A stretch of 64,000 bases of DNA from an uncultured Clostridia bacterium (GCA_964403285.1 CAYOFG010000005.1:9995-73994), one strand, 5' to 3'; positions 1,391 through 50,899 are shown, counted from the stretch's first letter. The notes: generated by a model not told the origin, from the sequence alone. Made by a program: numbers and translations.

Positions 1391-3340
1391 ATGAGATACT
1401 CTTGTAAATCCTGGGAGGAGCGGATGGACAGAACGGCTGGTCGTGTTTCCCAAAAAAGGTCAAGTATTTTTATTAAAATTTTTCTTTTGATGGCTGGTTT
1501 AGGTATAGGAATATCGATACCGAGCATCTTAATATTTACAGCTCACCACATAAGATATGCGAAGAATATTTTGCTTGAAAACAATAAGCTAATTGCTGAA
1601 TTGGCTTCTATGAATGTTCAGTCTGGATACTTCTTACAGCAGTGGCCTTTTGAATTCTTTAAGAAGATTAAAGATAATGAGAACATTGTTTACTGGAGAG
1701 TAGTCAAACCGGATGGGGAAATCTACTTGGCTGACGATGCAGAAGTCTGGGGGAAGAGGATTGAGGATGAGGCTGTGACCACAAGAACAACTTTGATGAA
1801 AGAGGACATTCTTTCTACAACTGGTGAGAAGATAGGAGTAATAGTTAGACCATTAGATATAAAGGAGGATGGCAGACAGTGGACTTTTTGGTTAGGATAC
1901 TCACTGGAACCGATTCTCGTTATGAAAAGGAAAGTATTATTTATGAGTCTTGGTGTGGAGTTCTTGATTATGATACTTGTTGGTTTTCTTGCTTACTATT
2001 TTTCTAAAGGGATTACTAGACCAGTAAAGCAGTTAGTAGAAGGAACGAAAGCCATATCTGAGGGTAATCTCGATTACGAAATAAAAACAGAATCCAATGA
2101 TGAAATTGGAGAACTGGCAGATTCGTATAACAAGATGGCTTACGATTTAAAGAGAACAACTATTTCCCGGGACTACTTTGACAATATAATCAGGAGTATG
2201 ATTGATACTTTAGTTATCTTTGACTCCCAGGAAAAGATTAAGATGGTGAATCGGGCAACCCTTGACCTTTTACAATATAGAGAAGAAGAACTAATCGGAA
2301 AACCTGCCAGTATACTTTTTGCAGAAGGCGAACCACTCTTCAAGAAAGAAAAGTTGGGAGAACTGATTGAAAAAGGCAAAATCAGGAATTTTGATACTAC
2401 TTATTTAACCAAGTCGGGAGAGAAAATTCCTGTCAGCTTTAGCGGGTCTATAATGAGAAATGTACAAGGAGAAATTGAAGGGATTGTGGGTGTGGCTAAA
2501 GATATAAGAAAGACCCAGAAGCTCATTTCTGAATTGAAAGCAGCGAATTTAGAACTAACCAGAAGTAAGAATGCAATGTTAAATATGTTGGAAGATTTGG
2601 ATGAGTCGCATAGGGAGTTAAAAACTCTCCACTCTCAACTTCTCCAGACGGAGAAGATGGTAGCAGTGGGAAGATTAGCAGCGGGAGTTGCTCATGAGAT
2701 AAATAATCCCTTATCCGGAGTTTTAGGGTTTGCCCAGGTACTTTTACAGGAGATTCCCGAAGGAAATGCCTGGCGCAGGGACGTGGGAAAGATTGAGGAG
2801 GGTGCCAAGCGATGTAAGAAGATTGTTTCCGACCTTTTAACTTTTTCCCGGCAGGAAGATTTTGAGTTGGAGCTTGCTGACATTAGAGAAGTAATCGATT
2901 CCACTCTCAGCCTGTGTCAGAATCAGATCTTATTGGAGAAGATCAAGATAATTAGGGATTATGAGGAAAACTTACCTAAATTGAGAGTAAGTATTCCTCA
3001 AATAGAGCAGGTCTTTCTCAATCTGATTACCAATGCGATTCAAGCTATGTCCGACGGCGGGGAACTAAAAATTTCAACTCGCTGGGGAAATGGAGGAGAT
3101 TCTGTAGAAATTTCTTTCACTGATACTGGGAAGGGAATCGAGAAAGAAAATTTGCCCAAAATATTTGAGCCGTTCTATACTACTCAAGAAGTGGGAAAAG
3201 GCACTGGATTGGGACTTTCTGTAAGTTATGAGATACTGAAGAGACATAATGGCAGTATCAAGGCAGAAAGTGAAGGAGAGGGCAAGGGAGCGCGTTTTAT
3301 GGTGATTTTACCCGTGGAAAAGAAGGAATATGAAAGTTAA
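1391..3340 (+). CDS. sensor histidine kinase (TM-HAMP-PAS-HisKA-HATPase)
   Basis: Two TM segments and a PAS region. H-box AHEINNPLSGVLGFAQ, then N/G1/G2 boxes (NLITNAIQA; DTGKGI; GTGLGLS). The true start is probably internal to the listed ORF. Confidence 0.85.
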   Translation: MRYSCKSWEERMDRTAGRVSQKRSSIFIKIFLLMAGLGIGISIPSILIFTAHHIRYAKNILLENNKLIAELASMNVQSGYFLQQWPFEFFKKIKDNENIVYWRVVKPDGEIYLADDAEVWGKRIEDEAVTTRTTLMKEDILSTTGEKIGVIVRPLDIKEDGRQWTFWLGYSLEPILVMKRKVLFMSLGVEFLIMILVGFLAYYFSKGITRPVKQLVEGTKAISEGNLDYEIKTESNDEIGELADSYNKMAYDLKRTTISRDYFDNIIRSMIDTLVIFDSQEKIKMVNRATLDLLQYREEELIGKPASILFAEGEPLFKKEKLGELIEKGKIRNFDTTYLTKSGEKIPVSFSGSIMRNVQGEIEGIVGVAKDIRKTQKLISELKAANLELTRSKNAMLNMLEDLDESHRELKTLHSQLLQTEKMVAVGRLAAGVAHEINNPLSGVLGFAQVLLQEIPEGNAWRRDVGKIEEGAKRCKKIVSDLLTFSRQEDFELELADIREVIDSTLSLCQNQILLEKIKIIRDYEENLPKLRVSIPQIEQVFLNLITNAIQAMSDGGELKISTRWGNGGDSVEISFTDTGKGIEKENLPKIFEPFYTTQEVGKGTGLGLSVSYEILKRHNGSIKAESEGEGKGARFMVILPVEKKEYES

Positions 3341-3710
3341 AATTAATGTTCTTATAATTGACGATGATGAAATTGTCCGGGACCTTTTCTTAAGAGTTTT
3401 GCAGAAGAGGGAGAATGTTAAGGTATTTGTGGCAGAGAATGGAAATGAGGGCATAGAAATTCTGAAAAGGAATCCTTTGCATACTATATTTCTCGATTTA
3501 GGGTTGCCAGAGATAAATGGAATTGAGACCTTTGAGAAGATACAGAGGCTGAACTTGAATGTAATAGTGACATTTATGACTGCGAGCTCAAATCTGAGTT
3601 TGGAGGAAAAGGCTAAGAAAATTCCTAACACTCAGGTAGTTTATAAACCATTAGAGATTGAAGAAATTTATAATATAGTTGATAGGAATTCAAAGAAACG
3701 TCTAAATTAA
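3330..3710 (+). CDS. single-domain response regulator (receiver only)
   Basis: 126 aa. DD pair (LIIDDDE), phospho-acceptor Asp in FLDLGLP, conserved Lys in YKPLE. No output domain. Confidence 0.85.
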   Translation: MKVKINVLIIDDDEIVRDLFLRVLQKRENVKVFVAENGNEGIEILKRNPLHTIFLDLGLPEINGIETFEKIQRLNLNVIVTFMTASSNLSLEEKAKKIPNTQVVYKPLEIEEIYNIVDRNSKKRLN

Positions 3711-3740
3711 ATTTATGCATACTGGAATTATGGAGGAGGG

Positions 3741-5429
3741 ATGGCGCGAGAAAGAATACTGATTGTGGATGACGAGATAGAGACCAGGGATGTGTGTAAG
3801 AGGCTCCTCAGCAAAAAAGGTTATCTGGTAAAGTTCGCCGAGGATGGACCGACAGCACTCAAAGTGATTAGAGATAGTTACTTTCAAGTGGTGCTTGCCG
3901 ATTTGAAGATGCCTGGTATAGATGGACTGACACTACTGAAGCGGATAAAAGAGGAACGTCCCCGAACAGAAGTAATTATTATTACCGGCTATGCGAGCAT
4001 CAATACAGCAGTTAAGGCAATGCGCATCGGTGCTTATGACTATATTGTAAAGCCATTCGATATCAATGAACTGGCCTTAGTAGTTGGTAGATGCCTGGAG
4101 AAACAGAGGTTGACGAGCAAGGTGGGTGAACTCAAAGAGGTTGTGGCTCTTTATGAGGTCAGTAAGGCAATGCGCTCGGTTATGGATTTGGGCAAGCTCC
4201 TCAAAACCATTCTTAAATTGGCTTGTGAGACAATGGCTGGTGATGGAGGGGTGTTGATGTTATTTGATAGAGAGGGAAAGGAGTTGCTTCCCCGAGTGCG
4301 AATCGGTTTAAAGAGGAAATGGTTAGGAACCATTAAAAAGGAGATTGAGGAGAGAATACCAGAATGGACGGGAAAAGGGAATAGTCCACTGCTACTTAGA
4401 AATATGGTCGGAGATTACTCTGATGGCAGGAAGGATAAGAGGTTTAAGAATAATATTTCAGGTATTGCCGTCCCCTTAAGAATAAAAGGTAGAGTGTTCG
4501 GGGTGATAAGTGTAAATAATTTTAAGGGGGGTGGGGAGAAGTTTACAGGAGAGAGTGCGAAGTTATTAACAATATTTGCCACCAATGCTTCTTTAGCTCT
4601 GGAAAACGCAAAAATTTATGTAAGGCTGGAACAGAAGAAGAAAGATTTGGAGAAGGCTAATGAACGGTTGAGAGAATTAGATAAATTGAAATCTCAGTTT
4701 GTGTTTATTCTTTCTGGCGAGTTGAGGAGGCCATTGGCTGCGGTGCAAGGGGCGATAGATTTGTTGGCAGCAAAATTGCCAAAAGAAGTAACAGCCGAAA
4801 AAGAAAGATTAATAAAAATTGCCAGAAATAATACTACTCGCATGGGAAAGTTGATTGAGGAATTGCTCGATTTTTCCCGAATAGAAGCAAGCACTATGAA
4901 ATTAAAAATGGAGAAGGTTTCCCTACCGGAAGTTGTCTCAGAGGCAGTTATTGAATCCAAAACTTTACTTGATAAGAGAGGGATTTCCCTACAAACTTTC
5001 TTACCCAGAAGTCCTGCTGAGGTATTTGCTGATTTTTACAGACTGAAGCAGGTGATTGTAAACTTGCTCAAAAATGCTGTAAACTTTACACCCCATAGAG
5101 GAAGAGTGGCTATCCAGGTGGAAGATAGAGAAAAGGAAGTGCGGATCGCTGTTGAGGATAAGGGAATGGGAATCCCCTCTAAAAACCAGAGTAAGATTTT
5201 CGAGAAGTTCTATCAGGTCAACGGCTCTTGGATAAAGAATGCTGGCGGATTTGGATTGGGCTTATACATTGCCAAGGCTATTGTGGAGGCGCATGGAGGA
5301 AGGATTTGGGTAAAGAGTGCACCGGGTAAAGGTAGTAAGTTCACATTCGTTATTCCCAAAGAGAAAAGAGCAAAGCCCCGGCCTTGCCAGAGCGAATTAC
5401 CTAACCTTTTTGATTATTTTATGAATTAG
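3741..5429 (+). CDS. hybrid REC-GAF-HisKA-HATPase histidine kinase
   Basis: N-terminal receiver (ILIVDDE...VLADLKMPGIDG...YIVKPF), central GAF-like region, H-box region (GELRRPL), HATPase (GMGIPS, GFGLGL). It is a paralogue of 51258-53192. Confidence 0.85.
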   Translation: MARERILIVDDEIETRDVCKRLLSKKGYLVKFAEDGPTALKVIRDSYFQVVLADLKMPGIDGLTLLKRIKEERPRTEVIIITGYASINTAVKAMRIGAYDYIVKPFDINELALVVGRCLEKQRLTSKVGELKEVVALYEVSKAMRSVMDLGKLLKTILKLACETMAGDGGVLMLFDREGKELLPRVRIGLKRKWLGTIKKEIEERIPEWTGKGNSPLLLRNMVGDYSDGRKDKRFKNNISGIAVPLRIKGRVFGVISVNNFKGGGEKFTGESAKLLTIFATNASLALENAKIYVRLEQKKKDLEKANERLRELDKLKSQFVFILSGELRRPLAAVQGAIDLLAAKLPKEVTAEKERLIKIARNNTTRMGKLIEELLDFSRIEASTMKLKMEKVSLPEVVSEAVIESKTLLDKRGISLQTFLPRSPAEVFADFYRLKQVIVNLLKNAVNFTPHRGRVAIQVEDREKEVRIAVEDKGMGIPSKNQSKIFEKFYQVNGSWIKNAGGFGLGLYIAKAIVEAHGGRIWVKSAPGKGSKFTFVIPKEKRAKPRPCQSELPNLFDYFMN

Positions 5430-5440
5430 GAGGGTCTCTA

Positions 5441-7987
5441 TTGGAAAGAACATCTCAACCAGATGTCTTCTTGGTTAATATTGTATATAAATATACAGGA
5501 CTTCTCGCTGGCATGGTGTGGCCATTAATACTAATTTTGAGAGAAATTCCACTTAGTAAATTCCCGCAAACATTTTCAGTTATCTTTTTAATAGTTGTTT
5601 TTAATATTGCCAGTAGCAAAATGATGCTCAAAGGTAAGTTTCTAAAATTGAATAAGCTACTCATGGGACTACTGAATATTCTTTTCGTGACCCTTCTGGT
5701 CTACTACTCAGGCGGTTACAAGTCGAACCTCTGGGTGATGTTTTTATTGCCCCTGATAATAGTTTCCTTGTTGTATTCGCTAAAGGAGGTGATTGTCGCT
5801 GCATCTTTTGTAACGATAATTTGTAGCCTCTTCTACTTTCTCCAGACCGAGAAAATTCAATTTGAGGGTGTTGCCTGGCTATTGTTGAAGAGTAGCATAT
5901 TTTTTGTTGTAAGTCTAATCTTCAAAAAGATTGTAGAGTTAGAGACAAAACATAGGGAGGCTTTTCAGGAGAAGAGCCGCGAGCTAATTAAAACTCGGGA
6001 TTATACGGACAACATTGTTAGGAATATGTTAGATTCTCTAATTGTAATTAGCCCTGATGCTAAGATAGAAAGGATAAATAAGGCAGCACTTGATATTTTG
6101 AATTATAACGAAAGGGAACTGATAAAAAAGCCAGTTACCAAAATTTTTTCTCAGAAAGACGGAGAACTCTTACAGGGTCGCCAATGGGGGGAGTTGCTAA
6201 ACAAAGGTTTCGTCAGGGATTTCGAGTTGACTTATGTAACTAAAAGAGGAGACAGAATTCCCGTAAGTCTTAGTGGCTCGGTAATGAGGGATGGTGAGGG
6301 GAAGACCGAGGCTGTTGTGGCAGTAGTTAGAGATATGCGGGCTCTGAAGACTCTAATTGCAGGTTTAGAGAAAGCAGGAAGAGAGATTAGAGAGTATAGC
6401 CAGAGTCTGGAAAGGAAGGTTGATGAGAGAACCAAAGAGATAAAAAAGCATGCTCATGAGTTTTCTATCATTTATGAAATAAACAAAGGTATCAGCTACA
6501 CCCTTGATATCCGCCAAATTTTAGAAACGATAATGGGTTCACTCCATAGACTGATAGACTACGATGTTTTCGCATCATTATTGATAGAAGGAGGGAAAGG
6601 AGAATTAATCATAGAATCCTGCCATTCACTAGATGAGAGGTTTCTTCAGGCGGTCAAGTTGAATCTGGCAGGTGTAGCGAATTCTCTTCTCGGCCGGGAT
6701 GTAAAAGTTGAAGATTTAAGAGTTACTTTGAGAAAGGAGAAAAGTTTCAGGCTTCGGCAACAAGTTGAAGGAGAATTGGAATCTTTCCTTAACGTACCTT
6801 TGGTTATTGAAAATCTTCCCCTGGGGATTCTGCACATAAGCAGTTTTAGAAAGAATGCATTTTCTGAAGATGACATCAGAATACTTCACACCATTGCCGA
6901 CCAGGTGGCTTCTGCACATAAGAAACTGAAGGAGTTAATCTCCAAAGAGAAGAGAAAAATTGAATCGATGGTGGAGAGTATGGGTGAAGGGGTAATAATG
7001 ACTGATGAGAGTGACAATCCGCTGGTGTTGAATCCTGCAGCAAAGGGGATGCTGGGAATCTCTTCCATAGATAGTATGAGCGATGAGGAAATGTGGAATT
7101 ATTTTGGAAAGCTTAAACTGGGCAGATTGTATCAAAAACTTTCCCAACAGGCAGGTGACGGGGTGGTTACTGAGGATGTGGATTTAGACGAACCTAAGCC
7201 AATTACTTTAAAAGTCACCTCTTCCCTGGTAAGGAATCACCTGGGCGAGAGACTGGGAGTGGTGACTGTATTGCGAGATGTTACTAAAGAGAAAGAGCTT
7301 GACCGCATGAAATCCGACTTCATTTCCTTCGTCTCTCACGAGTTACGTACTCCCCTTACAATTGTAAAGGGGTTTGCGACCATTATGTTGGACGATGCAT
7401 CGGACAGGCTTACCAGAGAGCAAAAGGAACAGTTATCCTATATCAATGAGAGTATCGACCACCTTTCCCGTATAATTTCCAATCTCCTGGACATTTCCAA
7501 AATAGAAGCGGGAAAGTTGCGGCTGGAAAAGAAGAGCGTAGATATTGTCTCCTTAATTAAAAAGGTGTTACGTTCATTCAGGCTATATGCCAAAAGTAAA
7601 GAGATTAAATTGGAGACTTCTTTTGCTACAAAATTGTCCCTTGTTTCGGCTGACCCCGACCGCCTGACACAAGTACTTACGAATCTTATTGACAATGCCA
7701 TTAAATTCTCTCACAAGAATGGAGAAGTTTTTATCAAAGCAAAAGAGGAGAAAGATGTTATTGAAGTCAGTGTCGCCGATTCGGGAATAGGTATCTCTCC
7801 AGAAAATTTCAATAGAATCTTCAATAAATTCCAGAGAGTAGAGAAGGGAATTAGTTCCAAGTTGAGAGGGACAGGACTGGGACTGCCCATTTCCCGGGAG
7901 ATTATTCAACTTCACGGCGGTAAAATCTGGGTAGAAAGCGAAGAAGGAAGAGGCAGTAAGTTCATTTTTACCCTTCCCCAACAATGA
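5441..7987 (+). CDS. multi-sensor membrane histidine kinase (5-6 TM, PAS, GAF, PAS, HisKA, HATPase)
   Basis: Hydrophobic N-terminal third, PAS/GAF regions, H-box FVSHELRTPLT, HATPase motifs (DNAIKFS, DSGIGIS, GTGLGL). Confidence 0.85.
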   Translation: MERTSQPDVFLVNIVYKYTGLLAGMVWPLILILREIPLSKFPQTFSVIFLIVVFNIASSKMMLKGKFLKLNKLLMGLLNILFVTLLVYYSGGYKSNLWVMFLLPLIIVSLLYSLKEVIVAASFVTIICSLFYFLQTEKIQFEGVAWLLLKSSIFFVVSLIFKKIVELETKHREAFQEKSRELIKTRDYTDNIVRNMLDSLIVISPDAKIERINKAALDILNYNERELIKKPVTKIFSQKDGELLQGRQWGELLNKGFVRDFELTYVTKRGDRIPVSLSGSVMRDGEGKTEAVVAVVRDMRALKTLIAGLEKAGREIREYSQSLERKVDERTKEIKKHAHEFSIIYEINKGISYTLDIRQILETIMGSLHRLIDYDVFASLLIEGGKGELIIESCHSLDERFLQAVKLNLAGVANSLLGRDVKVEDLRVTLRKEKSFRLRQQVEGELESFLNVPLVIENLPLGILHISSFRKNAFSEDDIRILHTIADQVASAHKKLKELISKEKRKIESMVESMGEGVIMTDESDNPLVLNPAAKGMLGISSIDSMSDEEMWNYFGKLKLGRLYQKLSQQAGDGVVTEDVDLDEPKPITLKVTSSLVRNHLGERLGVVTVLRDVTKEKELDRMKSDFISFVSHELRTPLTIVKGFATIMLDDASDRLTREQKEQLSYINESIDHLSRIISNLLDISKIEAGKLRLEKKSVDIVSLIKKVLRSFRLYAKSKEIKLETSFATKLSLVSADPDRLTQVLTNLIDNAIKFSHKNGEVFIKAKEEKDVIEVSVADSGIGISPENFNRIFNKFQRVEKGISSKLRGTGLGLPISREIIQLHGGKIWVESEEGRGSKFIFTLPQQ

Positions 7988-8048
7988 ATGAAAAGTCTGG
8001 AGTCCCCGATTTCATCGGGGGAGGTTGGAGTGTCATTTGTAGGCATCT

Positions 8049-8462
8049 ATGAAGATGAAAAAAAAGATTTTAGTCATTGATGATGAACCTCTGGTAGTTG
8101 AGGTTCTAAAGATTAGGTTGAAAATGAATAATTACGAAGTCATCACAGCCAGCGATGGCACGGAGGGGATAGAAAGGGCAGTGACGGAAAAGCCAGACCT
8201 CATCATTTTGGACGTAGTAATGCCCGGGCTGGATGGTTACCAGGTCTGCCAAAAATTGAAAGAAGATACAAACACCAAGACAATACCCGTTATTATGTTA
8301 ACAGCGCTTGGTCAATCCCCGGGGAGAAAAAAAGGATACTCTGCGGGAGCTCAAGATTATATTTTTAAACCCTTTGACGATGAAGAGTTACTAAATAGCG
8401 TAGAAAAAGCCCTAAAATACAAGATGATAAATTCTTCAAAGAAAAGAAGAAATGCAAACTAA
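8049..8462 (+). CDS. single-domain response regulator
   Basis: 137 aa receiver: ILVIDDEP, IILDVVMPGLDG, conserved Lys in FKPFD. No output domain. Confidence 0.85.
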   Translation: MKMKKKILVIDDEPLVVEVLKIRLKMNNYEVITASDGTEGIERAVTEKPDLIILDVVMPGLDGYQVCQKLKEDTNTKTIPVIMLTALGQSPGRKKGYSAGAQDYIFKPFDDEELLNSVEKALKYKMINSSKKRRNAN

Positions 8463-8474
8463 CGGGGTGCTCAA

Positions 8475-8876
8475 TTGGGTGTTCTAGTAAAGATTCTCGT
8501 TGTTGATGATGAGATAGAGGTGAGGGAATTATGTCGCAGGATATTTAACAAAGAGGGATACGTAGTGCACCTGGCGGTGAACGGGCAAGAAGCACTGGAG
8601 ATTTTGCAGAATAACAGCTACCATGTGGCTGTTGTTGATTTAAAAATGCCCAATATAGACGGGATGAAAGTCCTTGAAAAGATAAAGGAAAATTATCCCC
8701 AGACTGACGTGATTATTATTACCGGCTTTGGGACTATAAAGTCGGCAGTAGAGGCAATTCAGCGAGGAGCATCCAATTATCTTCCCAAGCCATTCGAAAT
8801 TGAAGAACTGAATGGAGCGATTAAAAATTGCCTGTCCAGGCAGAGCCTAATTGACGAAGGAGGAAGTGGAAGCTAA
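8475..8876 (+). CDS. single-domain response regulator
   Basis: 133 aa receiver: ILVVDDE, VVDLKMPNIDG, conserved Lys in LPKPFE. Confidence 0.85.
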   Translation: MGVLVKILVVDDEIEVRELCRRIFNKEGYVVHLAVNGQEALEILQNNSYHVAVVDLKMPNIDGMKVLEKIKENYPQTDVIIITGFGTIKSAVEAIQRGASNYLPKPFEIEELNGAIKNCLSRQSLIDEGGSGS

Positions 8877-9242
8877 GTGAAGAAACCCAAAGTTCTGGTT
8901 GTGGATGATGAACCGGATATCTGTGAAATTTTGGGAGTGTTTCTGGAAGATAATGGTTACCACTTTCTCCAGGCTAGCGATGGAAAACAAGCGATAGCCA
9001 AGGTAGAAAAGGAGAAGCCAGAAATAGTAATCCTGGATGTAGCTATGCCCAAAATGAGTGGGTTAGAAGTTCTTCGTAGAATAAAAAAGGATAATAAAGA
9101 AACAAATGTAATCTTGATTACCGCGTACCAGGATGCGGAAAAGGTTGTAGAGGCATTCCATTTAGGTGCTGACGACCTCGTATTTAAACCCTTTAACTTT
9201 AAATATTTAAGAAAAGTCCTCTCATCAAAAATTAGTGGTTAA
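8877..9242 (+). CDS. single-domain response regulator
   Basis: 121 aa receiver: VLVVDDEPD, VILDVAMPKMSG, conserved Lys in FKPFN. Its start overlaps the stop of the previous receiver gene. Confidence 0.85.
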   Translation: MKKPKVLVVDDEPDICEILGVFLEDNGYHFLQASDGKQAIAKVEKEKPEIVILDVAMPKMSGLEVLRRIKKDNKETNVILITAYQDAEKVVEAFHLGADDLVFKPFNFKYLRKVLSSKISG

Positions 9243-9313
9243 CAAAATTCCTGATTCCCCTCTCAGCTATACCTATCTAAAGATATGACTTCCCGAATCT
9301 AAAAAGGAAAATT

Positions 9314-10243
9314 ATGAAGAGCAGAATACTGGTTGTTGATGATGAGTTGAGCATTGTCGATTTCCTTGGTGGACAACTGGCAAACAGAGGATATGATGTC
9401 CTAAAAGCTTTCGATGGAGAGGAGGGCATTGATTTAGCCAAGAAAGAATTGCCGGACCTTGTGCTTCTGGACGTGCGTATGCCCAAAATGGATGGATTTG
9501 AAATCTGCCGAAAACTGAGAGAAGACCGTATGACTTATCTTATTCCCGTGATAATGATCACGGGGAAAAGGGAACAGGAAGATAAGATTACAGGGATTAA
9601 GTCTGGGGCTGACGATTATGTCACTAAACCCTTTGACCTACCGGAATTATTAGCCAGAATAGAAGGAGTTCTCTGGCGGACAAAGGTAGGAAAGGGAAGT
9701 AACCCCTTAACGGGCTTACCAGGGGCTCCGTCAATTGAGTATGAAATAAGCAAAAGGATAAACAATAGGAGTAAATATGCGGTTTGCTATCTCGATTTAG
9801 ATAATTTTAAAGCATACAATGACAAATATGGATATGACCAGGGAGATAAAGTTATTGTCTTTACAGCTAAGGTTTTAATTCAGGCAATAACTAAGGAAGG
9901 AAATGCAGATGACTTTCTTGGCCACATTGGCGGTGATGATTTTATTATAGTGACCACTCCCGAGAGAGTGGAAAGTATATGTAGAGTGGTCATTGATAAT
10001 TTTGACCTCAATATTCCCGTATTCTATGCTGAAGAAGATATAAAGAAAGGTTACATTGAGACGATTGACCGTAGAGGTAATCTCCATAGGTTCCCCTTTA
10101 TGACCCTTTCTATAGGGGTGTCCACCAATGAGAGGCGAACTTTTAATAGTCCCCTGGAGGTATCAGCCATAGCCACTGAAATGAAACAATATGCCAAGAC
10201 CTTTACGGGCAGTAACTATAAAGAAGATAGAAGAACTGGTTAA
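9314..10243 (+). CDS. response regulator with GGDEF (diguanylate cyclase-type) output; GGDDF variant
   Basis: Receiver (ILVVDDE...LLDVRMPKMDG...VTKPF) followed by NPLTGLPG...LDLDNFKAYND...HIGGDDF. The signature reads GGDDF instead of GGDEF, and no RxxD I-site is visible upstream of the motif. Confidence 0.8.
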   Translation: MKSRILVVDDELSIVDFLGGQLANRGYDVLKAFDGEEGIDLAKKELPDLVLLDVRMPKMDGFEICRKLREDRMTYLIPVIMITGKREQEDKITGIKSGADDYVTKPFDLPELLARIEGVLWRTKVGKGSNPLTGLPGAPSIEYEISKRINNRSKYAVCYLDLDNFKAYNDKYGYDQGDKVIVFTAKVLIQAITKEGNADDFLGHIGGDDFIIVTTPERVESICRVVIDNFDLNIPVFYAEEDIKKGYIETIDRRGNLHRFPFMTLSIGVSTNERRTFNSPLEVSAIATEMKQYAKTFTGSNYKEDRRTG

Positions 10244-10268
10244 TAAAAAGTGACAGGTAGTTTTTTTT

Positions 10269-10465
10269 GGTCTCTGAAAAAGTCCTCCTCGATGTCTTTG
10301 CGAGGAGCAAAGCGGTTGCGAGGCGAAGCCGAAGCAAACTCGTGCGGAATTACGAGATTGCTTCACTTCGTTCGCAATGACACTTTGTGTCAGATTGCCA
10401 CGCCCTTCGGGCTCGTCCCGACTTTCAATCGGGAACAGACCAAAGTCAATACTTTTTCAGAGACC
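10269..10465 (+). repeat. 197-bp MITE-like element with 14-bp terminal inverted repeats (GGTCTCTGAAAAAG)
   Basis: An almost identical copy in inverse orientation lies at 18835-19027. The interior is built from CATTGCGAG / GCAATCTC palindromic sub-units. This copy sits between the two arms (10250-10260 and 10494-10505) of a GTGACAGGTA/GTACCTGTCAC palindrome. Confidence 0.8.
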
Positions 10466-10517
10466 TTTTTTTAAGCGATATCAAGAGAAAAAAGTACCTG
10501 TCACCTTTTTTTAGAAA

Positions 10518-10546
10518 TTGACAGGCAAATATAATAAGTGTATAAT
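10518..10546 (+). promoter_or_regulatory. sigma-70-like promoter for otsA (TTGACA-17-TATAAT)
   Basis: Perfect -35 TTGACA (10518-10523), a 17-nt spacer, and perfect -10 TATAAT (10541-10546), about 60 nt upstream of the otsA ATG. Confidence 0.6.
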
Positions 10547-10605: not shown

Positions 10606-12069
10606 ATGTGGACGAAAGAAAACTTAGAGGATACAATTAAAAATAAATTTGGTGGTTATGATTTTATCGTTGTTTCCAACCGAGAGCCATACGTCCATGA
10701 ATATTCGGGCAAGAAAGTCAGATGCGTGAAGTCTATTGGAGGTCTCACTACTGCCATTGATCCAATAATGAAGGCTTGTAAGGGTGTTTGGGTTGCTTAT
10801 GGAAGTGGAGATGCTGACAAGGATGTTGTGGATAAAAGTAACAAAATTAAGGTTCCTCCTGAGGACCCGAAGTATAGTTTAAAGAGAATATGGATGACCA
10901 AGGAAGAGGAGAACGGTTTCTATTACGGCTATGCGAATCAAGTTCTTTGGCCATTATCTCACATCGCCTATCGCCAGCCAATTTTTGACGCCTCCCATTG
11001 GGAGTATTACCAGAAAGTCAACCAGAAGTTTGCCGAAGCTATTCTGGAAGAGAAAAGAGATAAGAAATTGTTCGTCTGGCTCCAGGATTACCATCTAAGT
11101 ATATGTGCGAAAATTATCAAGGAGAAAAATCCCGATGCAATTGTCTCTCTATTCTGGCATATTCCCTGGCCCAACCCGGAGGTATTCAGGATATGTCCCC
11201 AGAAAAAGGAACTCCTGGAAGGGCTTTTAGCCAACGACCTTCTGGGATTCCACCTTCGCTACCATTGCCTCAACTTTCTGGATACCGTAAGCCAGGAATT
11301 GGAAGCCAAAGTCAATCGTGAAGAGTCTTCTGTTACCTATAGGGACCATAAGACTTTAGTGAGACCGTTTCCCATCAGCGTCGATGCCGCGGGTATCTCA
11401 CAGATGGCTAATAGTAAAGAAGTTAAAGAAAAAATGAAAAGCCTTCCGGAAGAGATAGACCCACCTTATGAAATCCTCTGTCTGAGTATAGATAGGGTTG
11501 ATTATACTAAGGGAATTTTGGAAAAAATCAGAGGAGTGGATAGATTTTTAGAGAAGTATCCCGAATACCAGGGGCGGTTCGTGTTCGTTCAGCTGGGGGC
11601 ACTGAGTCGATTGCACATCAAGACTTACAAGCAATTAATAGATGATATCCAGTCCCTGGCTGAAGATGTGAATTGGAAATACCGTTCTGGCTACTGGTAT
11701 CCCATTGTCCTCATCAATCGCCGGCTCGATTATACAACGCACCTCGCCTACTATCGCGCTTGCGACCTGTTCCTGGTAGGTTCTCTCCATGACGGAATGA
11801 ACTTGGTTGCCAAAGAGTACAATATGGCTAACGTAGACCTTAATGGAATGCTCGTTTTGAGCCAGTTTACAGGCGCAGCGAGAGAATTAAAGGATGCTAT
11901 TTTGATAAATCCTTTTGACACTGAAGGATTTGCCGATGCGATTTACTCTGCAGTTACGATGCCAGAGGAGGAGAGAAAAAAACGGGTGAGAAATATGCGG
12001 AAGATCATCCTGGAAAATAACATTTATAAATGGGCAGGGAAATTCATCCTCCAGTTAAGCGAATTATAA
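10606..12069 (+). CDS. otsA: trehalose-6-phosphate synthase (GT20)
   Basis: 487 aa. Contains VVSNREPY, GGLTTAI, NQVLWPLSH and VWLQDYHL blocks typical of OtsA. Confidence 0.8.
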   Translation: MWTKENLEDTIKNKFGGYDFIVVSNREPYVHEYSGKKVRCVKSIGGLTTAIDPIMKACKGVWVAYGSGDADKDVVDKSNKIKVPPEDPKYSLKRIWMTKEEENGFYYGYANQVLWPLSHIAYRQPIFDASHWEYYQKVNQKFAEAILEEKRDKKLFVWLQDYHLSICAKIIKEKNPDAIVSLFWHIPWPNPEVFRICPQKKELLEGLLANDLLGFHLRYHCLNFLDTVSQELEAKVNREESSVTYRDHKTLVRPFPISVDAAGISQMANSKEVKEKMKSLPEEIDPPYEILCLSIDRVDYTKGILEKIRGVDRFLEKYPEYQGRFVFVQLGALSRLHIKTYKQLIDDIQSLAEDVNWKYRSGYWYPIVLINRRLDYTTHLAYYRACDLFLVGSLHDGMNLVAKEYNMANVDLNGMLVLSQFTGAARELKDAILINPFDTEGFADAIYSAVTMPEEERKKRVRNMRKIILENNIYKWAGKFILQLSEL

Positions 12070-12077
12070 AATAAGTC

Positions 12078-12923
12078 TTGAGCAGGATAAGTATCGTGAA
12101 ATATGTTTTCCATGTTTGGCAAAATATTGAAAGGAGATTGTTCTCAGCTAAGAGGATACTTCTTCTTTTGGACTTCGACGGCACACTGACTCCCATTGTC
12201 GATCGTCCTGGGAAGGCGGAACTCCCTTCAGAGATGGAAGGAATTCTGAAATTTCTTACAAGAAAGAGAAGATTCGAGGTTGCTATTATAAGCGGAAGGT
12301 CTCTTTATGACTTAAAACAAAAAATCAAGATAAGGAACATAATTTATGTGGGAAATCATGGATTGGAGATAGAAAGGAAGGGAAAAAAATTTATCTATCC
12401 CCAAGCCTCAAAATCAATCCCCACTATGAAGGAACTAAAGAAAATTCTAAAAGCAAGACTTGGTTCTATTAGAGGAACAATTATTGAAGATAAGAGAGTA
12501 GGCTTAGCTGTACATTATAGAGGGGTAAAGAATTCCGACGTGCCAGAATTAAAGAGGACCGTGAGAGAAGTTTTCAGTCCGTTTATGGAAAAGAGGAAGA
12601 TAAGAGTTGGCCATGGGAAAAAAATGGTTGAGGCAAAACCTCCTATTATGTGGGATAAGGGGAAAGCGGCTTCTCTGCTTATAAATTCTTTCAGGCAAGA
12701 GAAACCTCTTCCCATCTATTTAGGAGATGATAAGACAGACGAAGATGCTTTTTCCTCGCTGGATGGGAAAGGGATTACTGTTTTCGTGGGAAAACCCGGG
12801 AAATCAAAAGCGAATTTTTTTCTCAAGAATATTCGTGAAGTGGGGATTTTCCTGAAGAGGCTTTCTGCTTTGAAGGTAGGAGGTCATAAACCAAGTGCAC
12901 AAGAAAACGGGCCGCCTGGTTAA
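12078..12923 (+). CDS. otsB: trehalose-6-phosphate phosphatase (HAD family)
   Basis: LLLDFDGTLTPIV (HAD motif I), later YLGDDKTDEDAF (motif III). It lies immediately downstream of otsA. Confidence 0.75.
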   Translation: MSRISIVKYVFHVWQNIERRLFSAKRILLLLDFDGTLTPIVDRPGKAELPSEMEGILKFLTRKRRFEVAIISGRSLYDLKQKIKIRNIIYVGNHGLEIERKGKKFIYPQASKSIPTMKELKKILKARLGSIRGTIIEDKRVGLAVHYRGVKNSDVPELKRTVREVFSPFMEKRKIRVGHGKKMVEAKPPIMWDKGKAASLLINSFRQEKPLPIYLGDDKTDEDAFSSLDGKGITVFVGKPGKSKANFFLKNIREVGIFLKRLSALKVGGHKPSAQENGPPG

Positions 12924-13596
12924 GGCCAGAGAGCCATTCCATTTCTATACCAGGCTTAATTTAATTGAGTTTACGGGTAAGAAAGCCACCAATTTGCGCG
13001 AGCTGGTAGAGATAATGAAAGAAGTACCGGGTTCGGTTATCTACCACCATACGCACCATTATCTGCAACAGCACCTTTATCTCTCACCGGAACCTCCCAA
13101 CGACTTTGCCTACTGGGTTACCTATATTCTTCGCGAGGATGAATTGGGAGAAGAGATTGCCAGTATTGACCTCTGCAAATTTTCTACGATTCGCTCCCTG
13201 AGAGAAAAAATTATAGAGACCATTGAACAGCATCTTGCCCAAAACCCTGAACCGCTACGCACGGCACTCCCGGGAGGAGAATTCCATTTCCTTAAGACGA
13301 TTACCTTTATTCTGCCTACTCCTTATGTTGCGGGTGACCTATTAGAGTTTCTGGAATCTATCAAGAAAATTTCTATCCATTCAATCTACTTCCATATGTT
13401 TGAGGCGAAACTAAGGTTAGAAAAAGGAGAAAACGATTTTTCTCGCTGGATTGAAGATATGCTGGGAGAGAAGGAACTTGCCGAGGAGATTGCCCGACTC
13501 GACCCTTATACTTTTACTATGGAAGGTTTGCGGGGTGAACTCTCAAGACTAATTGCCAAGTATATTCCTGGAGAAATAATCGAATGTCAACAATAA
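12895..13596 (+). CDS. conserved hypothetical protein embedded in trehalose locus
   Basis: 233-aa ORF between otsB and the TreT-like gene, overlapping both ends. I recognise no family. Confidence 0.4.
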   Translation: MHKKTGRLVKAREPFHFYTRLNLIEFTGKKATNLRELVEIMKEVPGSVIYHHTHHYLQQHLYLSPEPPNDFAYWVTYILREDELGEEIASIDLCKFSTIRSLREKIIETIEQHLAQNPEPLRTALPGGEFHFLKTITFILPTPYVAGDLLEFLESIKKISIHSIYFHMFEAKLRLEKGENDFSRWIEDMLGEKELAEEIARLDPYTFTMEGLRGELSRLIAKYIPGEIIECQQ

Positions 13597-14804
13597 GTGA
13601 CTACGAATCAATTGTGGGAGCTGATGTAATCAACGAATTAAGAATGCTCGCCCGGAAACTGAAGAATAAAGTTATTCAGAATATCAACTCCACTTCAGTA
13701 GGTGGGGGAGTAGCTGAGATTCTCGGCCGCATGGTTCCCCTCCTGCAAGATTTGGGAGTAGATACCCGCTGGGATGTGGTGGAGGGAGGAGAAAAGTACT
13801 TTCAGGTAACCAAGAAGTTCCATAATGCTCTCCACGGCAGGAAAACGGAGATTACCAGTGATGACTATGAAATTTTTCTTGAAACTACAAAGACAAACAT
13901 TGAACAGATGGAATTTTATGGCGATATAATTTTCGTTCATGACCCTCAGCCGGTAGCTTTAGTGGAAAAGAAAAAATACTTGAAGAGCAGTTGGATCTGG
14001 AGGTGCCATATCGATTTCACCTATCCCGACCCCGAAGTGTGGAAGTTTCTTAAATCCTTTGTAGAGCAATACGACGCCTGTGTTTTTTCAGCGCCTTCTT
14101 TCTCTCGCCCGTTGCCCATTAGGCAGTTTTTGATTTCTCCTTCCATCGACCCCTTAAGCGTTAAGAATAGAGACTTGTCCGAGGAAGAAATTAATGATGT
14201 TCTTGAGAGACTAAAGATAAATAGGGATAAGCCAATAATTACTCAAATTTCTCGTTTCGATTATCTCAAGGATCCTTTTGGGGTAATCGAAGCCTTCCGG
14301 CAGGTTAAAAAGTATGTCGACTGCCGACTGGTTTTGGCTGGAGGAGGTGCAATTGATGACCCTGAGGGAGCAAAAGTCTTTCAGGAAGTAGTAGAGAAAG
14401 CAGGGAATGACCCGGATATCAACGTTTTGCTTCTCCCCCCGGCAAGCGACCTGGAAATAAATGCCTTACAAAGGGCATCTACAGTCATTCTCCAGAAGTC
14501 TCTCAGGGAAGGTTTTGGGCTTACAGTGGCTGAGGCTTTATGGAAGGCTAAGCCAGTGGTTGCTTCTGCAGTAGGTGGCATACCTTTACAGATTACCCAT
14601 AAGTATTCTGGACTACTTTCCCACACAGTTCAGGGAACTGCTTATTGGATCAGGCAGCTGCTCCATAGTCCCGGGTACGCGACAAAGTTGGGCGAAAATG
14701 GTAAAGCACACATTAAGCAAAATTTCCTCCTTACCAGACACTTGAGAGAGTACCTGCTCCTTTTTCTATCCTTAGAAGAAAAAGGGGACATAATCTACTT
14801 ATAA
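13584..14804 (+). CDS. treT: trehalose glycosyltransferring synthase-like GT4 (TreT-like)
   Basis: Blocks NINSTSVGGGVAEIL, RWDVVEGG..FQVTKKFHNALHG, FVHDPQPVALV, WIWRCHIDF, SPSIDPLSVKN, PIITQISRFDYLKDPFGVIEAF, LQKSLREGFGLTVAEALWKAKPVV and LLTRHLREYL. I recall these as matching archaeal/bacterial TreT closely; the match is from memory, not a search. Confidence 0.7.
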   Translation: MSTISDYESIVGADVINELRMLARKLKNKVIQNINSTSVGGGVAEILGRMVPLLQDLGVDTRWDVVEGGEKYFQVTKKFHNALHGRKTEITSDDYEIFLETTKTNIEQMEFYGDIIFVHDPQPVALVEKKKYLKSSWIWRCHIDFTYPDPEVWKFLKSFVEQYDACVFSAPSFSRPLPIRQFLISPSIDPLSVKNRDLSEEEINDVLERLKINRDKPIITQISRFDYLKDPFGVIEAFRQVKKYVDCRLVLAGGGAIDDPEGAKVFQEVVEKAGNDPDINVLLLPPASDLEINALQRASTVILQKSLREGFGLTVAEALWKAKPVVASAVGGIPLQITHKYSGLLSHTVQGTAYWIRQLLHSPGYATKLGENGKAHIKQNFLLTRHLREYLLLFLSLEEKGDIIYL

Positions 14805-14979: not shown

Positions 14980-15058
14980 TTGTCCGATAAAGGCAAACCT
15001 CGAGAAATCGGGGGGCGCAAAACCTCGGATCTAAGGAGCCACCTCTATGATGGCCGGG
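14980..15058 (+). promoter_or_regulatory. c-di-GMP-I (GEMM)-like riboswitch, copy 1 (translational type)
   Basis: UCCGAUAAAGGCAAAC, then the hairpin CCUCGA-GAAA-UCGGGG (GNRA loop), then GGCGCAAAACC. A second stem CUCGG...CCGGG encloses the AAGGAG SD and the AUG at 15047. Confidence 0.45.
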
Positions 15059-16765
15059 TTGCCGAAGACAATAAACAATATATGGAGCCGAATAGGCAGG
15101 AAAACGTGCTTGTTCGGTTTTATATTTATATTAACTGTAGTTCCTTTAAGAATTATTGCATTTGCTGAGAGTACTGAACAGACTGTTTTAGGAAATCTCC
15201 AAGTTGTCAATAACACGCTGTTTGGAAAATTCAATTATGGCAATGAACGTGCGGAAGGATTTCTGGAAGCTAAAGAGTCTTTCCCAGGAGGGGTAAGCGG
15301 CTTTGTAATAGGGACAAACATTGGTCTGGGTTCTCTTGAGGAGAATTGCGGAAAAGGGAAAATAGACGTAAAAGTATGTTTTACTAATGATAATCCGGTA
15401 TGGGAGCGAAGCGCTCTTTATAAAGTAGGAGCCGCATGGCTTCCCCAGTTGAATCTTGGCTCTACTCACTTAAAAGCCAGGCTGGGCCTTAGAGGGGGTT
15501 ACCTTTCAGTAACGACCACTACCGAGCCGATAGACCCGCCATACCCCTCTCAATTCCTTTATGGAGGCGAGAGCGGACTATCCATTTCCCAGGAGTTCAA
15601 AGGGATAACTTTTGAGACCGGAGTTACCGGGTATATGACTTACAGTTTCTATAATCAGACTAATCAGGTTGATAATTCGGGAATTGAGTTACAGGCGGGT
15701 AGCAGAGTAGAGGTTCTTCCGGTTATATTAAGACTGGGATGGACGGGGACTTTAGTAAGCTATAATCAGGACAAATACTTTTTTCTGGATTCTATGAGAG
15801 AGGACAGTTACGAAGTTAGCATCGCCTATGCTGGAGAAAGGTTTGGTGTGGGACTATTCAATTCTCTGGAAATCAGAGAGGGAATAGAATTTGCAAGGAA
15901 GAGGGACCTGACAGGTATGGGAGTCCAGGTAGGCGGATGGTTAGCGAAGGGGATTTTCTCGCAGGACCTTCTGGTCGGGAAAGAGGCCTTCACAATTTCA
16001 CTGGGTAGAGATTTTTCTGATGCATATTTTGAAGCCTACTGGACAAAAGACCAGAATTATGTAGAGACAGGTAATGGTAACATTTTTGGAGTGAGTTTCA
16101 AGTGCGGGATTGGGCCTAAGCCATCTGATCTTGTGGAAATTGAGTCTTATAAGAGTTATGTTCGAGAAGGTGATAGTCCGTTCAACGCATTGCCCGATTT
16201 TCGCCTGCCATTTACTGAAAGCGTAGAAAGACTCGATACTATGAACAAGGTTATAAGGTACACCAGAAGTAACCTGGAATATATCCCACAGAATGGTTAT
16301 GACCGCGACCCCAAGGAAGTGTTCGAGTTGAGGGGAGGAGACTGTGATGAGCAAGTCTTCTTTCAGCTACATGCCCTGAAGTCCCATGGCTATGATGATT
16401 TATACGAACTGGCTTTCGTGTCTCCCAGAATGGCACACGCCTTCTCATACGGTAAAGATAACAGGACAGGAGAAGAATATATATGGGAGTATGGCAGGGT
16501 ATTCAGATTGGATTTTGACCCTGACTCAAGCCTCTCAGAAAAGGAGAAGATGGCAGCTATCCTTTCATCCAGGAGTTACACAGAGGACTGGGAGTATCTT
16601 TGGACTTTCAAACCCCCAAGTTCTGACTATAGGAAATACAATTACCAGGATATGGAATGCGTTTATGAAGCCTGGAGTGACGAGATAGATATTTCAGGAG
16701 ATACGGTACAAGTAATTCCTGAGTCGGGAATAAGATTATTTATCGGCACAGAATTTGAAGAATAA
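15047..16765 (+). CDS. secreted protein, paralogue A of tandem pair (function unknown; C-terminal GGDCDE-containing domain)
   Basis: 572 aa with an N-terminal signal/TM. More than 90% identical to 17145-18818 across most of its length. Confidence 0.75.
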   Translation: MMAGLPKTINNIWSRIGRKTCLFGFIFILTVVPLRIIAFAESTEQTVLGNLQVVNNTLFGKFNYGNERAEGFLEAKESFPGGVSGFVIGTNIGLGSLEENCGKGKIDVKVCFTNDNPVWERSALYKVGAAWLPQLNLGSTHLKARLGLRGGYLSVTTTTEPIDPPYPSQFLYGGESGLSISQEFKGITFETGVTGYMTYSFYNQTNQVDNSGIELQAGSRVEVLPVILRLGWTGTLVSYNQDKYFFLDSMREDSYEVSIAYAGERFGVGLFNSLEIREGIEFARKRDLTGMGVQVGGWLAKGIFSQDLLVGKEAFTISLGRDFSDAYFEAYWTKDQNYVETGNGNIFGVSFKCGIGPKPSDLVEIESYKSYVREGDSPFNALPDFRLPFTESVERLDTMNKVIRYTRSNLEYIPQNGYDRDPKEVFELRGGDCDEQVFFQLHALKSHGYDDLYELAFVSPRMAHAFSYGKDNRTGEEYIWEYGRVFRLDFDPDSSLSEKEKMAAILSSRSYTEDWEYLWTFKPPSSDYRKYNYQDMECVYEAWSDEIDISGDTVQVIPESGIRLFIGTEFEE

Positions 16766-16835: not shown

Positions 16836-16931
16836 AAAAAAGGGGACAGGCTACTTTTTCAAAATTTTACGTATTTTTTACAATTTTTTTACACATCCGT
16901 GATATTAATAGTATAGACTGTATTTAAATAT

Positions 16932-17066
16932 TCCGAAAAGGCAAACTCCGAGCAATCGGAGGGCGCAAAGCCTTGGGGTTACATAGATATACAACATTGC
17001 AGTTGAACCAGCCGGGCTGCCGATAACGAGTAGGGGAACCCGTTAGGGGTAGCCCGGCTTTTTTTT
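16932..17066 (+). promoter_or_regulatory. c-di-GMP-I (GEMM)-like riboswitch, copy 2 (terminator type)
   Basis: UCCGAAAAGGCAAAC, then hairpin CUCCGA-GCAA-UCGGAG, then GGCGCAAAGCC. Further downstream, the stem GCCGGGCU...AGCCCGGC plus eight U residues forms an intrinsic terminator just before the RBS/ATG of paralogue B. Confidence 0.55.
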
Positions 17067-17144
17067 AATCTGCTAGCCCACAAACTCAGTATGGAAAATG
17101 CTGTCAAAAGGGATGAAAAACTTTGGGAAAGAAGTGGGGGAAGT

Positions 17145-18818: not shown

Positions 18819-18834
18819 GGGCAGCCAAATAAGA

Positions 18835-19027
18835 GGTCTCTGAAAAAGTATTGACTTTGGTCTGTCATTGCGAGTCCCGATTGAAAATCGGGGCGTGGCA
18901 ATCTGACATAAAGTGTCATTGCGAACGAAGTGAAGCAATCTCGTAATTCCGCACGAGTTTGCTTCGGCTTCGCCTCGCAACCGCTTTGCTCCTCGCAAAG
19001 ACATCGATGGGGACTTTTTCAGAGACC
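18835..19027 (-). repeat. 197-bp MITE-like element, inverted copy
   Basis: Reverse complement of 10269-10465 with a few indels. It has the same terminal inverted repeats. Confidence 0.8.
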
Positions 19028-19272
19028 AAAATAAAAGACTTGACAAATTCGCATTTTTGTAGCATTATTTAAAGAGGGTAAATAGGGATATAAGTGTGTG
19101 CTGGGGTGAATTTTTTTTGTCTGCATTTTGAAGTGTTGATTTCAAAGTTACAGTATTACTAAAATTGACGAAGACGTATCGGAGGAAAAGAACCCAATCC
19201 TTAGCCATGCAGGAGATATCGACCCCAGGCCCAGAATACAGGAGATTCGAACCTAGGCTTTAGTCAAGAAAG

Positions 19273-22743: not shown

Positions 22744-23134
22744 TATTCACCTCAAAAATAAAAAATCCAGCATTCCGCACTTGCAAAATACTGGACTTCG
22801 TTTCTCCTTCTCAAGCACGGAAAGCGCACCGATTTCTCAATGCACTCTATCGGCCATCAACCATATCTTTTGGACTTAGGCAAAGTGGCTCGGAGAATAT
22901 TTTTATAGCATAGTATAAAAATTATACTTTTTTGTCAAGTAAAAAAGAGATAGATGTTATCCAAAGGCTTTACCCACCCAGATTCTCGTTCTGGGAATCT
23001 TAACTTACCGGCAACCTCTGTTCGCTTCTGGTCATTTAGAAGTGAAAGCTTGACGAATTCTTATTTTCCTTGATTTTTATAGGAGGTTTAGATATAATAC
23101 TTTTGGTATTCTGGATAGTTCTAAGGTTGTGGAT

Positions 23135-50875: not shown

Positions 50876-50899
50876 GGCAAAGGTTTTTCCCTGCAGGTT

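Follow-up and report, generated by a model that had tools for sequence, protein, structure and literature searches.

A nine-gene FIST, kinase and receiver cluster ending in a GGDDF-type cyclase, and its possible connection to neighboring c-di-GMP-I riboswitches

We examined a 64,000-nucleotide stretch of DNA from an uncultured Clostridia bacterium (GCA_964403285.1 CAYOFG010000005.1:9995-73994; hereafter the window), and in particular a cluster of two-component signaling genes that ends in a receiver (REC) domain fused to a variant GGDEF nucleotide cyclase domain. The open reading frames (ORFs) of the window were listed and then scanned with Pfam. From the gene of a FIST-domain protein through the receiver-cyclase gene, this gave a co-directional block of nine ORFs, all on the + strand, with gaps of 0-120 nt between the genes. 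The members of the cluster, and a second kinase pair elsewhere in the window, are as follows (HK, histidine kinase; TM, transmembrane; DHp-CA, dimerization/histidine phosphotransfer and catalytic core):

3-1271, + strand: FIST_N + FIST_C protein, a putative NosP-like accessory sensor whose N-terminus is cut by the window edge (Pfam)
1391-3340, + strand: HK1, 2TM-HAMP-PAS-HisKA-HATPase, canonical kinase (Pfam, H-box)
3330-3710, + strand: stand-alone receiver (Pfam, REC only)
3741-5429, + strand: REC-GAF-HisKA-HATPase (DHp-CA core) without the phospho-acceptor His, a pseudo-kinase (Pfam, H-box)
5441-7987, + strand: HK3, about six TM helices followed by PAS-GAF-PAS-HisKA-HATPase, canonical kinase (Pfam, H-box)
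8049-8462, + strand: stand-alone receiver (Pfam, REC only)
8475-8876, + strand: stand-alone receiver (Pfam, REC only)
8877-9242, + strand: stand-alone receiver (Pfam, REC only)
9314-10243, + strand: receiver fused to a GGDDF-type (variant GGDEF) nucleotide cyclase domain (Pfam, motif)
49454-53192, + strand: second kinase pair, sCache-HAMP-HK (49454) and REC-GAF-PAS-HK (51258) (Pfam)

The ORFs and domain types given in the original prediction, made from the sequence of this window, were all present on the + strand; the upstream FIST gene had been overlooked. Its statements that no response regulator here has a DNA-binding domain and that the GGDEF-type domain is the sole enzymatic output of the cluster both agreed with the domain map, in which Pfam found no DNA-binding domain in any cluster response regulator. 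Among the remaining window ORFs of at least 110 aa, Pfam detected no EAL, HD-GYP, PilZ or second GGDEF domain, and no cluster protein gave an Hpt match at E ≤ 0.01.

We then compared the phospho-acceptor motifs of the three kinase-type proteins. The H-boxes of HK1 (AHEINNPL) and HK3 (SHELRTPL) are canonical. In the 3741-5429 protein the H-box reads ILSGELRRPL, with Gly in place of the acceptor His, and the DHp region contains no His at all; the same position reads SD, SG, SG and SD in four orthologs, and the ATP-binding N, G1 and G2 boxes are retained. Without the acceptor His, this protein is therefore not expected to be a normal phosphodonor. Three histidine kinases, one of them a hybrid, had been predicted; three kinase-type proteins are indeed encoded, and by their motifs they comprise two canonical kinases as putative phosphodonors and one conserved His-less kinase-like protein, the supposed hybrid, with its own receiver. 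The second-pair paralog at 51258-53192 keeps the acceptor His (H-box SHKLRNPL), and its relationship to the 3741-5429 protein, which had been described as close, proved only moderate (50% identity in REC, 42% over REC-GAF).

These features also bear on the phosphorelay that the original prediction had put forward. A classical His-Asp-His-Asp phosphorelay was ruled out because no Hpt domain was detected, the receiver of the 3741-5429 protein is N-terminal and not the C-terminal receiver of a hybrid kinase, and its kinase core is His-less. A parallel is the pseudo-kinase DivL of Caulobacter, which senses a single-domain receiver in its phosphorylated form and switches CckA (PMC9430884). As in the DivL-DivK-CckA system, the window encodes a kinase-like protein without acceptor His, a property conserved in its orthologs, that adjoins a bona fide kinase in a receiver-rich network (PMC9430884). 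DivL has Tyr, PAS domains and no receiver of its own, whereas the window protein has Gly (Gly or Asp in orthologs), an N-terminal REC and a GAF domain, and we draw the comparison as an analogy only.

The four stand-alone receivers had been described as consecutive. All four are present, and only three lie in a row (8049, 8475 and 8877), with 3330-3710 set apart and translationally coupled to HK1, whose stop it overlaps by 11 nt; because of this overlap, it is likely to be the cognate partner of HK1. Receiver 8049-8462 is the closest paralog (48%) of the cyclase's own receiver, and 8475-8876 most resembles (48%) those of the two REC-GAF-HK proteins. Each of the seven REC domains of the window has its acceptor-site residues (DD, D, T/S and K) intact, and the four lone receivers are thus predicted to be phosphorylatable. 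Orthologs of 3330, 8049 and 8475 were found in all related contigs compared (loci are labeled L with a number below). Receiver 8877 is intact in L087 and L088, each of which has one additional receiver, and is present only as fragments in L086 and L089, so that the number of lone receivers among close relatives ranges from 2 to 4 and 8877 appears dispensable. A role as phosphate sink, as the original prediction suggested, is possible. The lone receivers resemble single-domain receiver hubs and sinks (MrrA, PMC5964349; CheY-type) in standing alone with intact acceptor sites beside several kinases; they differ in that neither partner-switching nor chemotaxis genes lie nearby and in that one of them is evolutionarily dispensable. 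An adaptor or dimerization role is suggested as an equally good alternative, because REC-REC-REC-GGDDF fusion proteins occur in the same phylum, Elusimicrobiota.

At the other end of the cluster, the FIST protein matched Pfam FIST (109.7 bits) and FIST_C (40.6 bits); its ORF is open to base 3 and shares 73% identity with a 439-aa ortholog in L086. The gene lies directly upstream of that of HK1. In the NosP-NosK(NahK)-NosR system, a FIST heme protein controls a kinase that phosphorylates a c-di-GMP (cyclic di-GMP)-type regulator (PMC12570481), and the window likewise has a FIST gene adjoining genes for a kinase and for a receiver whose output is of c-di-GMP type. This core of three genes accompanies the same kind of cyclase elsewhere: in a set of 80 distant species-representative loci, whose gene context was read from stop-to-stop frames, five carry a FIST-HK-REC-GGDDF triad (L018, L019, L024, L031 and L066; Omnitrophota and Planctomycetia). 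The window differs from NosP-NosK-NosR in that its output is a GGDDF cyclase and not an HD-GYP or GGDEF-EAL protein, and in that its lineage adds a second kinase, the pseudo-kinase and four lone receivers.

The 9314-10243 protein has the receiver and GGDEF fold expected of the REC-GGDEF that had been predicted, and its motif reads HIGGDDF, not GG(D/E)EF. It scored 57.1 bits against Pfam GGDEF (PF00990; gathering score 23.8), with a match limited to profile positions 5-91 of 161, and alignments to solved cyclases (phmmer and profile) end near domain position 100-126, shortly after the motif. Within the alignable part, YLDLDNFKAYNDKYGYDQGD retains the metal Asp and the guanine-contacting Asn and Asp (equivalents of PleD D327, N335 and D344). 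A full-length AlphaFold2 (AF2) model (predicted local distance difference test, pLDDT, 90.9) shows the canonical REC-linker-GGDEF topology, and its top Foldseek matches in the PDB are WspR, PleD and DgcR, with which the protein shares a receiver, a coiled linker, a GGDEF-fold domain and conserved metal and guanine-binding residues. The extra receivers of the window lineage are separate genes, though in L048 they are fused to the cyclase. No NCBIfam model names the protein, and several NCBI records call its relatives merely 'response regulator'.

Two other identities for this domain were rejected. The base-specificity position (GacA S348 / PleD D344) is Asp and not the Ser of Hypr enzymes, which rules out a Hypr/cGAMP (cyclic GMP-AMP) synthase. 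A Cas10/mCpol-type GGDD polymerase was set aside on Pfam and fold matches that are to GGDEF cyclases, with a sub-threshold Cas10 palm2 match in one Gemmatimonadota relative only. A characterized precedent is GSU1937 of Geobacter sulfurreducens, a Hypr enzyme: in E. coli its GGDDF domain gave signals of both cGAMP and c-di-GMP, and the same source describes other GGDDF proteins as inactive or untested (PMC8835794). In the literature we searched on GGDDF or the 'GGDD motif', GSU1937 was the sole active GGDDF enzyme, beside inactive dual-domain examples and papers on Cas10. GSU1937 and the window protein share the GGDDF motif and have no EAL or HD-GYP partner (PMC8835794); they differ at the N-terminus, which is transmembrane in GSU1937 and a receiver in the window protein, and at the specificity position, with the Hypr Ser in GSU1937 and the canonical Asp in the window protein.

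We next investigated how widespread this type of cyclase is. A search with the cyclase domain alone gave at least 7,965 homologs, and all 120 that were listed carry H-x-GGDD-[F/Y]. With HMMER against 1.84 billion representatives, 1,039 clusters were found at E ≤ 1e-30, 3,480 at E ≤ 1e-10 and 65,148 at E ≤ 1e-3; HxGGDDF is present in 139 of the best 150 of the 1,039. We estimate the clade at about 1,000 clusters at 50% identity in more than 10 phyla. A pattern scan of GTDB species representatives gave at least 600 matches, those listed including Omnitrophota, Gemmatimonadota, Actinomycetota, Nitrospirota, Chloroflexota, Clostridia, Elusimicrobiota, Eremiobacterota and Planctomycetota. Among the features conserved in the clade are the metal Asp within Y-x-D-x-D-x-FK (in most members), the GHxGGDDF motif, an invariant extra Lys one helical turn ahead of the conserved Lys and, specific to this clade, the C-terminal pattern Y..D...G.I....R...P....SIG...N..R...E.K..AK....S.Y..D.R. 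Of the 120 homologs listed, 97 retain the guanine-contacting Asn and Asp, and Ser occupies the base-specificity position in about 3 of 87 clade ORFs. This conservation indicates that the clade is under strong constraint.

Gene context in the distant set gave a further view of the partners of these cyclases. A kinase adjoins the cyclase gene in about 25 of the 80 loci. In Elusimicrobiota, one locus (L048) encodes a single REC-REC-REC-GGDDF protein and another (L072) the order HK / REC-GGDDF / REC-REC-REC / REC-GGDDF, and a Chloroflexia locus (L007) encodes HisKA-REC-REC-GGDDF. Such REC-REC-REC-GGDDF and HK-REC-REC-GGDDF fusions appear to link additional receivers and a kinase with cyclases of this type.

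Candidate readers of the cyclase product are encoded in the same window. The original prediction had named three leaders as possible c-di-GMP effectors, and both the Rfam scores and the canonical ligand-site nucleotides bore them out as real c-di-GMP-I aptamers. They and the genes they precede are:

14982-15066, + strand: c-di-GMP-I aptamer RS1 (Rfam RF01051, 79.6 bits; threshold 35)
15047-16765, + strand: p572 gene, gated by RS1
16931-17067, + strand: c-di-GMP-I aptamer RS2 (16931-17025), with an intrinsic terminator stem at 17010-17059 and a U-run to 17067 (Rfam, folding)
17091-18818, + strand: p575 gene, tandem paralog of p572 (90% identical), gated by RS2
53230-55779, - strand: operon gated by RS3, encoding a 490-aa type IX secretion system (T9SS) cargo with Por_Secre_tail and then a PorV/PorQ-family protein (Pfam/NCBIfam-type matches)
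55794-55945, - strand: c-di-GMP-I aptamer RS3 (55860-55945; Rfam, 84.2 bits, threshold 35), with a separate terminator of about 50 nt at about 55794-55845

All three leaders share the canonical GGCAAAC and CGCAAAG cores of RF01051 (GEMM-I), and two are followed by intrinsic terminators; they depart from it in the long, atypical P2 loop of RS2 and in RS1 containing the start codon of its gene. RS2 scores best as the 'GGC' family RF03167 (62.2 bits, threshold 59, under the clan rule), a slight preference that is due to its P2 loop. At the diagnostic column RS2 has A (CGCAAAG), as do RS1, RS3 and the aptamers of relatives, and the RF03167 consensus has G (CGCGAAG). A 'GGC' variant paired with the variant cyclase was ruled out by the A at this position in RS2 and in the aptamers of L006 and L016, which likewise score as RF03167. 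By these nucleotides, all three are predicted to have ordinary c-di-GMP-I ligand sites. Since the 3' strand of the RS2 aptamer doubles as the 5' arm of its terminator, ligand should prevent termination, which implies that RS2 would act as an ON switch. In RS1 the conserved ATG (15050) of the p572 gene lies inside the aptamer 3' strand, and a hairpin that follows (15080-15125) covaries among relatives. RS1 and RS2 each have their own promoter.

The p572 protein has a signal peptide, a predicted outer-membrane β-barrel and a C-terminal α/β domain with an invariant RGGDCDEQ motif. Its AF2 model is of moderate quality (pLDDT 66), with a barrel of about 16-18 strands that matches LptD, BamA, OprC and porins only generically (TM 0.2-0.33). 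The family is narrow (27 matches), and its close homologs are labeled Elusimicrobiota. Residues ~118-410, about 290 aa in the center of p572 and p575, are 100% identical, suggesting recent duplication or gene conversion. The two genes also have their own aptamers with different expression platforms, a start codon inside the aptamer in RS1 and a terminator in RS2, and because of this difference one ligand might regulate p572 and p575 differently.

We then asked how stable the neighborhood of cyclase and riboswitches is. Five related contigs, with cyclases 82-88% identical to that of the window, keep the order FIST-HK1-REC-pseudoHK-HK3-RECs-REC-GGDDF, and in the three sequences that reach far enough (the window, L086 and L089) a riboswitch-gated 57x-aa gene invariably follows the cyclase gene. 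L086 has the layout of the window: the cyclase is followed by otsA-otsB-DUF5752-treT, then by an aptamer and a gene of 569 aa. L089 lacks the trehalose operon; its aptamer (7502-7586) begins 137 nt downstream of the cyclase stop codon, and beyond it lie a 571-aa gene and the same PAS-HisKA_3 kinase as at 19273 in the window. The trehalose operon of the window (10606-14804) encodes OtsA, OtsB, DUF5752 and a TreT-like glycosyltransferase, and is preceded by a perfect 12/12 sigma-70-like promoter at 10518-10546. As it is present in L002 and L086 and absent from L089, we regard it as an indel between the cyclase and riboswitch genes.

A covariance model built from five aptamers was used to scan the distant loci, and its matches were rechecked with Rfam. 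A c-di-GMP-I-type aptamer lies within 8 kb in 3 of the 80 (L018, L016 and L006), near the cyclase gene in the latter two (L016, Omnitrophota; L006, Thermincola). This co-location is suggestive. In L018 (Omnitrophota; 0-6077, - strand), the aptamer is divergent from the FIST-HK-REC-GGDDF operon, and the protein that it gates exceeds 1,980 aa.

Our preferred reading, to which we give an even chance, is a NosP-like multi-input network in which the two kinases, the pseudo-kinase and the receivers set the phosphorylation of the REC-GGDDF protein, whose product, most likely c-di-GMP, would be read by the adjacent riboswitches that control envelope proteins. Its inputs would be the FIST protein, HK1 and HK3, in a branched two-component network without a transcription-factor output. 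By analogy with DivL, the pseudo-kinase may serve as a phospho-receiver-controlled modulator of the adjacent HK3, and the lone receivers would buffer, compete for or adapt the phosphoryl flow. Phosphorylation would dimerize the cyclase, as in WspR, PleD and DgcR, and the dimer would make a guanine-containing cyclic dinucleotide, most probably c-di-GMP. The messenger would then reach the neighboring c-di-GMP-I riboswitches and so gate the two predicted β-barrel proteins and the T9SS cargo/PorV operon. The domain map, the absence of the acceptor His, the signature of the clade, the aptamers and the gene order are observed directly; the activity of the cyclase and its product, every phosphotransfer step, and the roles of the FIST protein and of the lone receivers are things that we infer. 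The link from cluster to riboswitches, which the original prediction had drawn, is plausible but unproven: it finds support in their adjacency in the window, in L086 and L089 and in the three distant loci, and has to be restated without a phosphorelay and with a GGDDF variant as the cyclase.

Several observations weigh against this network. The FIST protein scored 68.1 bits against the NCBIfam NosP model (NF041558), far under its cutoff of 450, and is not a NosP equivalog. The catalytic signature of the cyclase departs from that of every well-studied diguanylate cyclase, as in the RxGG(D/E)EF motif of WspR, PleD and DgcR: His, invariant in the clade, replaces Arg two residues before GG, and the fourth motif residue is Asp instead of Glu. 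Neither Pfam nor a profile search against PDB sequences could align its C-terminal ~70-90 residues to canonical GGDEF domains; in this half the 'GRN' motif reads GSN by motif inspection only, with Ser for Arg and the Lys kept. The literature searched reported no assay of any member of the HxGGDDF clade. Many members of the clade are orphans among housekeeping genes, for instance between rpe and ribD, and the multi-kinase wiring is for that reason lineage-specific. Synteny among relatives with 82-88% identical cyclases is largely inherited and is not independent evidence, and the 3 of 80 distant loci with an aptamer have no matched random-locus background, so that we claim no significance for them. 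Finally, because c-di-GMP is diffusible and the genome beyond the 64-kb window is unseen, other cyclases could feed the riboswitches.

The explanation that survives best beside the preferred network, though we consider it unlikely, is that the HxGGDDF domain works as a cyclase or polymerase and yields another cyclic or linear guanine nucleotide, and that other diguanylate cyclases supply the riboswitches. The active-site changes of the clade are coordinated (Arg to His before GG, Glu to Asp, GRN to GSN, the extra invariant Lys) and are accompanied by a conserved C-terminal half of its own; a few members resemble Hypr enzymes in having Ser at the base-specificity position, and one shows weak Cas10 palm2 similarity (24.3 bits). 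Against another product, both guanine contacts, Asn and Asp, are present in the window protein and in most of the clade, the GSU1937 GGDDF domain made c-di-GMP besides cGAMP in E. coli (PMC8835794), and canonical c-di-GMP-I aptamers are co-located with these cyclases in four unrelated lineages. A bolder version, which we likewise consider improbable, takes HxGGDDF proteins as a distinct, ancient and widespread enzyme class that, with its remodeled triphosphate/metal site, makes a nucleotide signal other than c-di-GMP, or makes c-di-GMP by a different mechanism free of I-site feedback, and that in this Elusimicrobiota-like lineage has come under a DivL-like His-less kinase and a variable number of decoy receivers.

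We find it quite unlikely that the GGDDF domain is instead catalytically dead and serves as a nucleotide-binding or protein-interaction output, with the lone receivers signaling as diffusible CheY-like regulators. Non-GG(D/E)EF motifs are usually inactive, as cited for PA3258 (PMC8835794), the Pfam match is partial, and each of the four lone receivers could carry an output by protein binding. Yet the acidic pair, the metal Asp and the substrate-base residues are near-invariant over about 1,000 clusters at 50% identity, at an overall identity of about 45-55%, a pattern to be expected of a working active site. Degenerate GGDEF domains of the receptor type usually keep the RxxD I-site, which is absent here (its first position is Arg in 4 of the 120 homologs listed), and there is no partner EAL domain to regulate.

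Equally doubtful is the view that independent two-component modules (HK1 with receiver 3330, HK3 with one or more of the later receivers) are merely co-located and that riboswitch proximity is inherited gene order. It would fit the 62-nt gap and the weak terminator-like site that lie between HK3 and the receiver block, the varying receiver number in close relatives, the separation of the cyclase from RS1 by a trehalose operon with its own promoter, and the promoters of RS1 and RS2. Against it, five related contigs keep the whole order from FIST to REC-GGDDF, other phyla have the FIST-HK-REC-GGDDF core as well, the parts are united in fusion proteins, and a riboswitch gene adjoins the cyclase with or without the trehalose operon.

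If the wiring of the preferred network is right, the cluster is a compact and tractable case of several sensory inputs merged by receivers and a pseudo-kinase into one second-messenger enzyme, with the read-out, riboswitch-gated envelope proteins, encoded next door. The HxGGDDF family is large, yet annotation pipelines label its members only 'response regulator' or 'GGDEF-like', and census studies that score GG(D/E)EF would count these enzymes as inactive. Should they be active, estimates of c-di-GMP capacity would change for Omnitrophota, Gemmatimonadota, Acidimicrobiia, Nitrospirota, Chloroflexota, Clostridia and Elusimicrobiota.

Some further contexts of clade members were noted. In Actinomycetota-type loci (L025, L041, L052 and L075) the order def-fmt-rpe-[REC-GGDDF]-ribD-ribE-ribBA-ribH is conserved, placing the cyclase gene beside the GTP-consuming riboflavin pathway. 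In two Candidatus Glassbacteria loci (L003 and L004), a type IV pilus / type II secretion system-like operon comes after genes for REC-GGDDF, HK, REC and REC, and its ATPase carries an MshEN domain, a domain type that binds c-di-GMP in some proteins. Clade members of L058 and other Gemmatimonadota are about 333 aa long with an N-terminus that is not REC, and it was one Gemmatimonadota member that gave the sub-threshold Cas10/Cmr2 palm2 match (threshold 27 bits).

Within the window, inverted repeat arms of about 220 nt (10251-10472 and 18828-19045; 155 nt at 95% plus 38 nt at 95%) enclose the 8.4-kb otsA-otsB-DUF5752-treT-RS1-p572-RS2-p575 segment. L002, L086 and L089 lack these arms, which could be a sign that the segment is invertible or was rearranged recently. 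A short motif, AAAAAGTGACAGGTACTTTTTT, is found repeatedly at the ends of genes, in the window (10250, 10495 on the - strand, 14809, 43370, and 43397 on the - strand) and also in L086. Elsewhere, a molybdenum cofactor (Moco)/tungsten riboswitch (22788-22907, - strand, 70.5 bits) lies ahead of genes for a PBP_like_2 solute-binding protein and a phosphate-selective-porin-like protein. Lastly, a KdpD-like protein (32568-34745) encoded after kdpABC has KdpD, Usp, DUF4118 and GAF domains and no HisKA/HATPase core, with no KdpE nearby.

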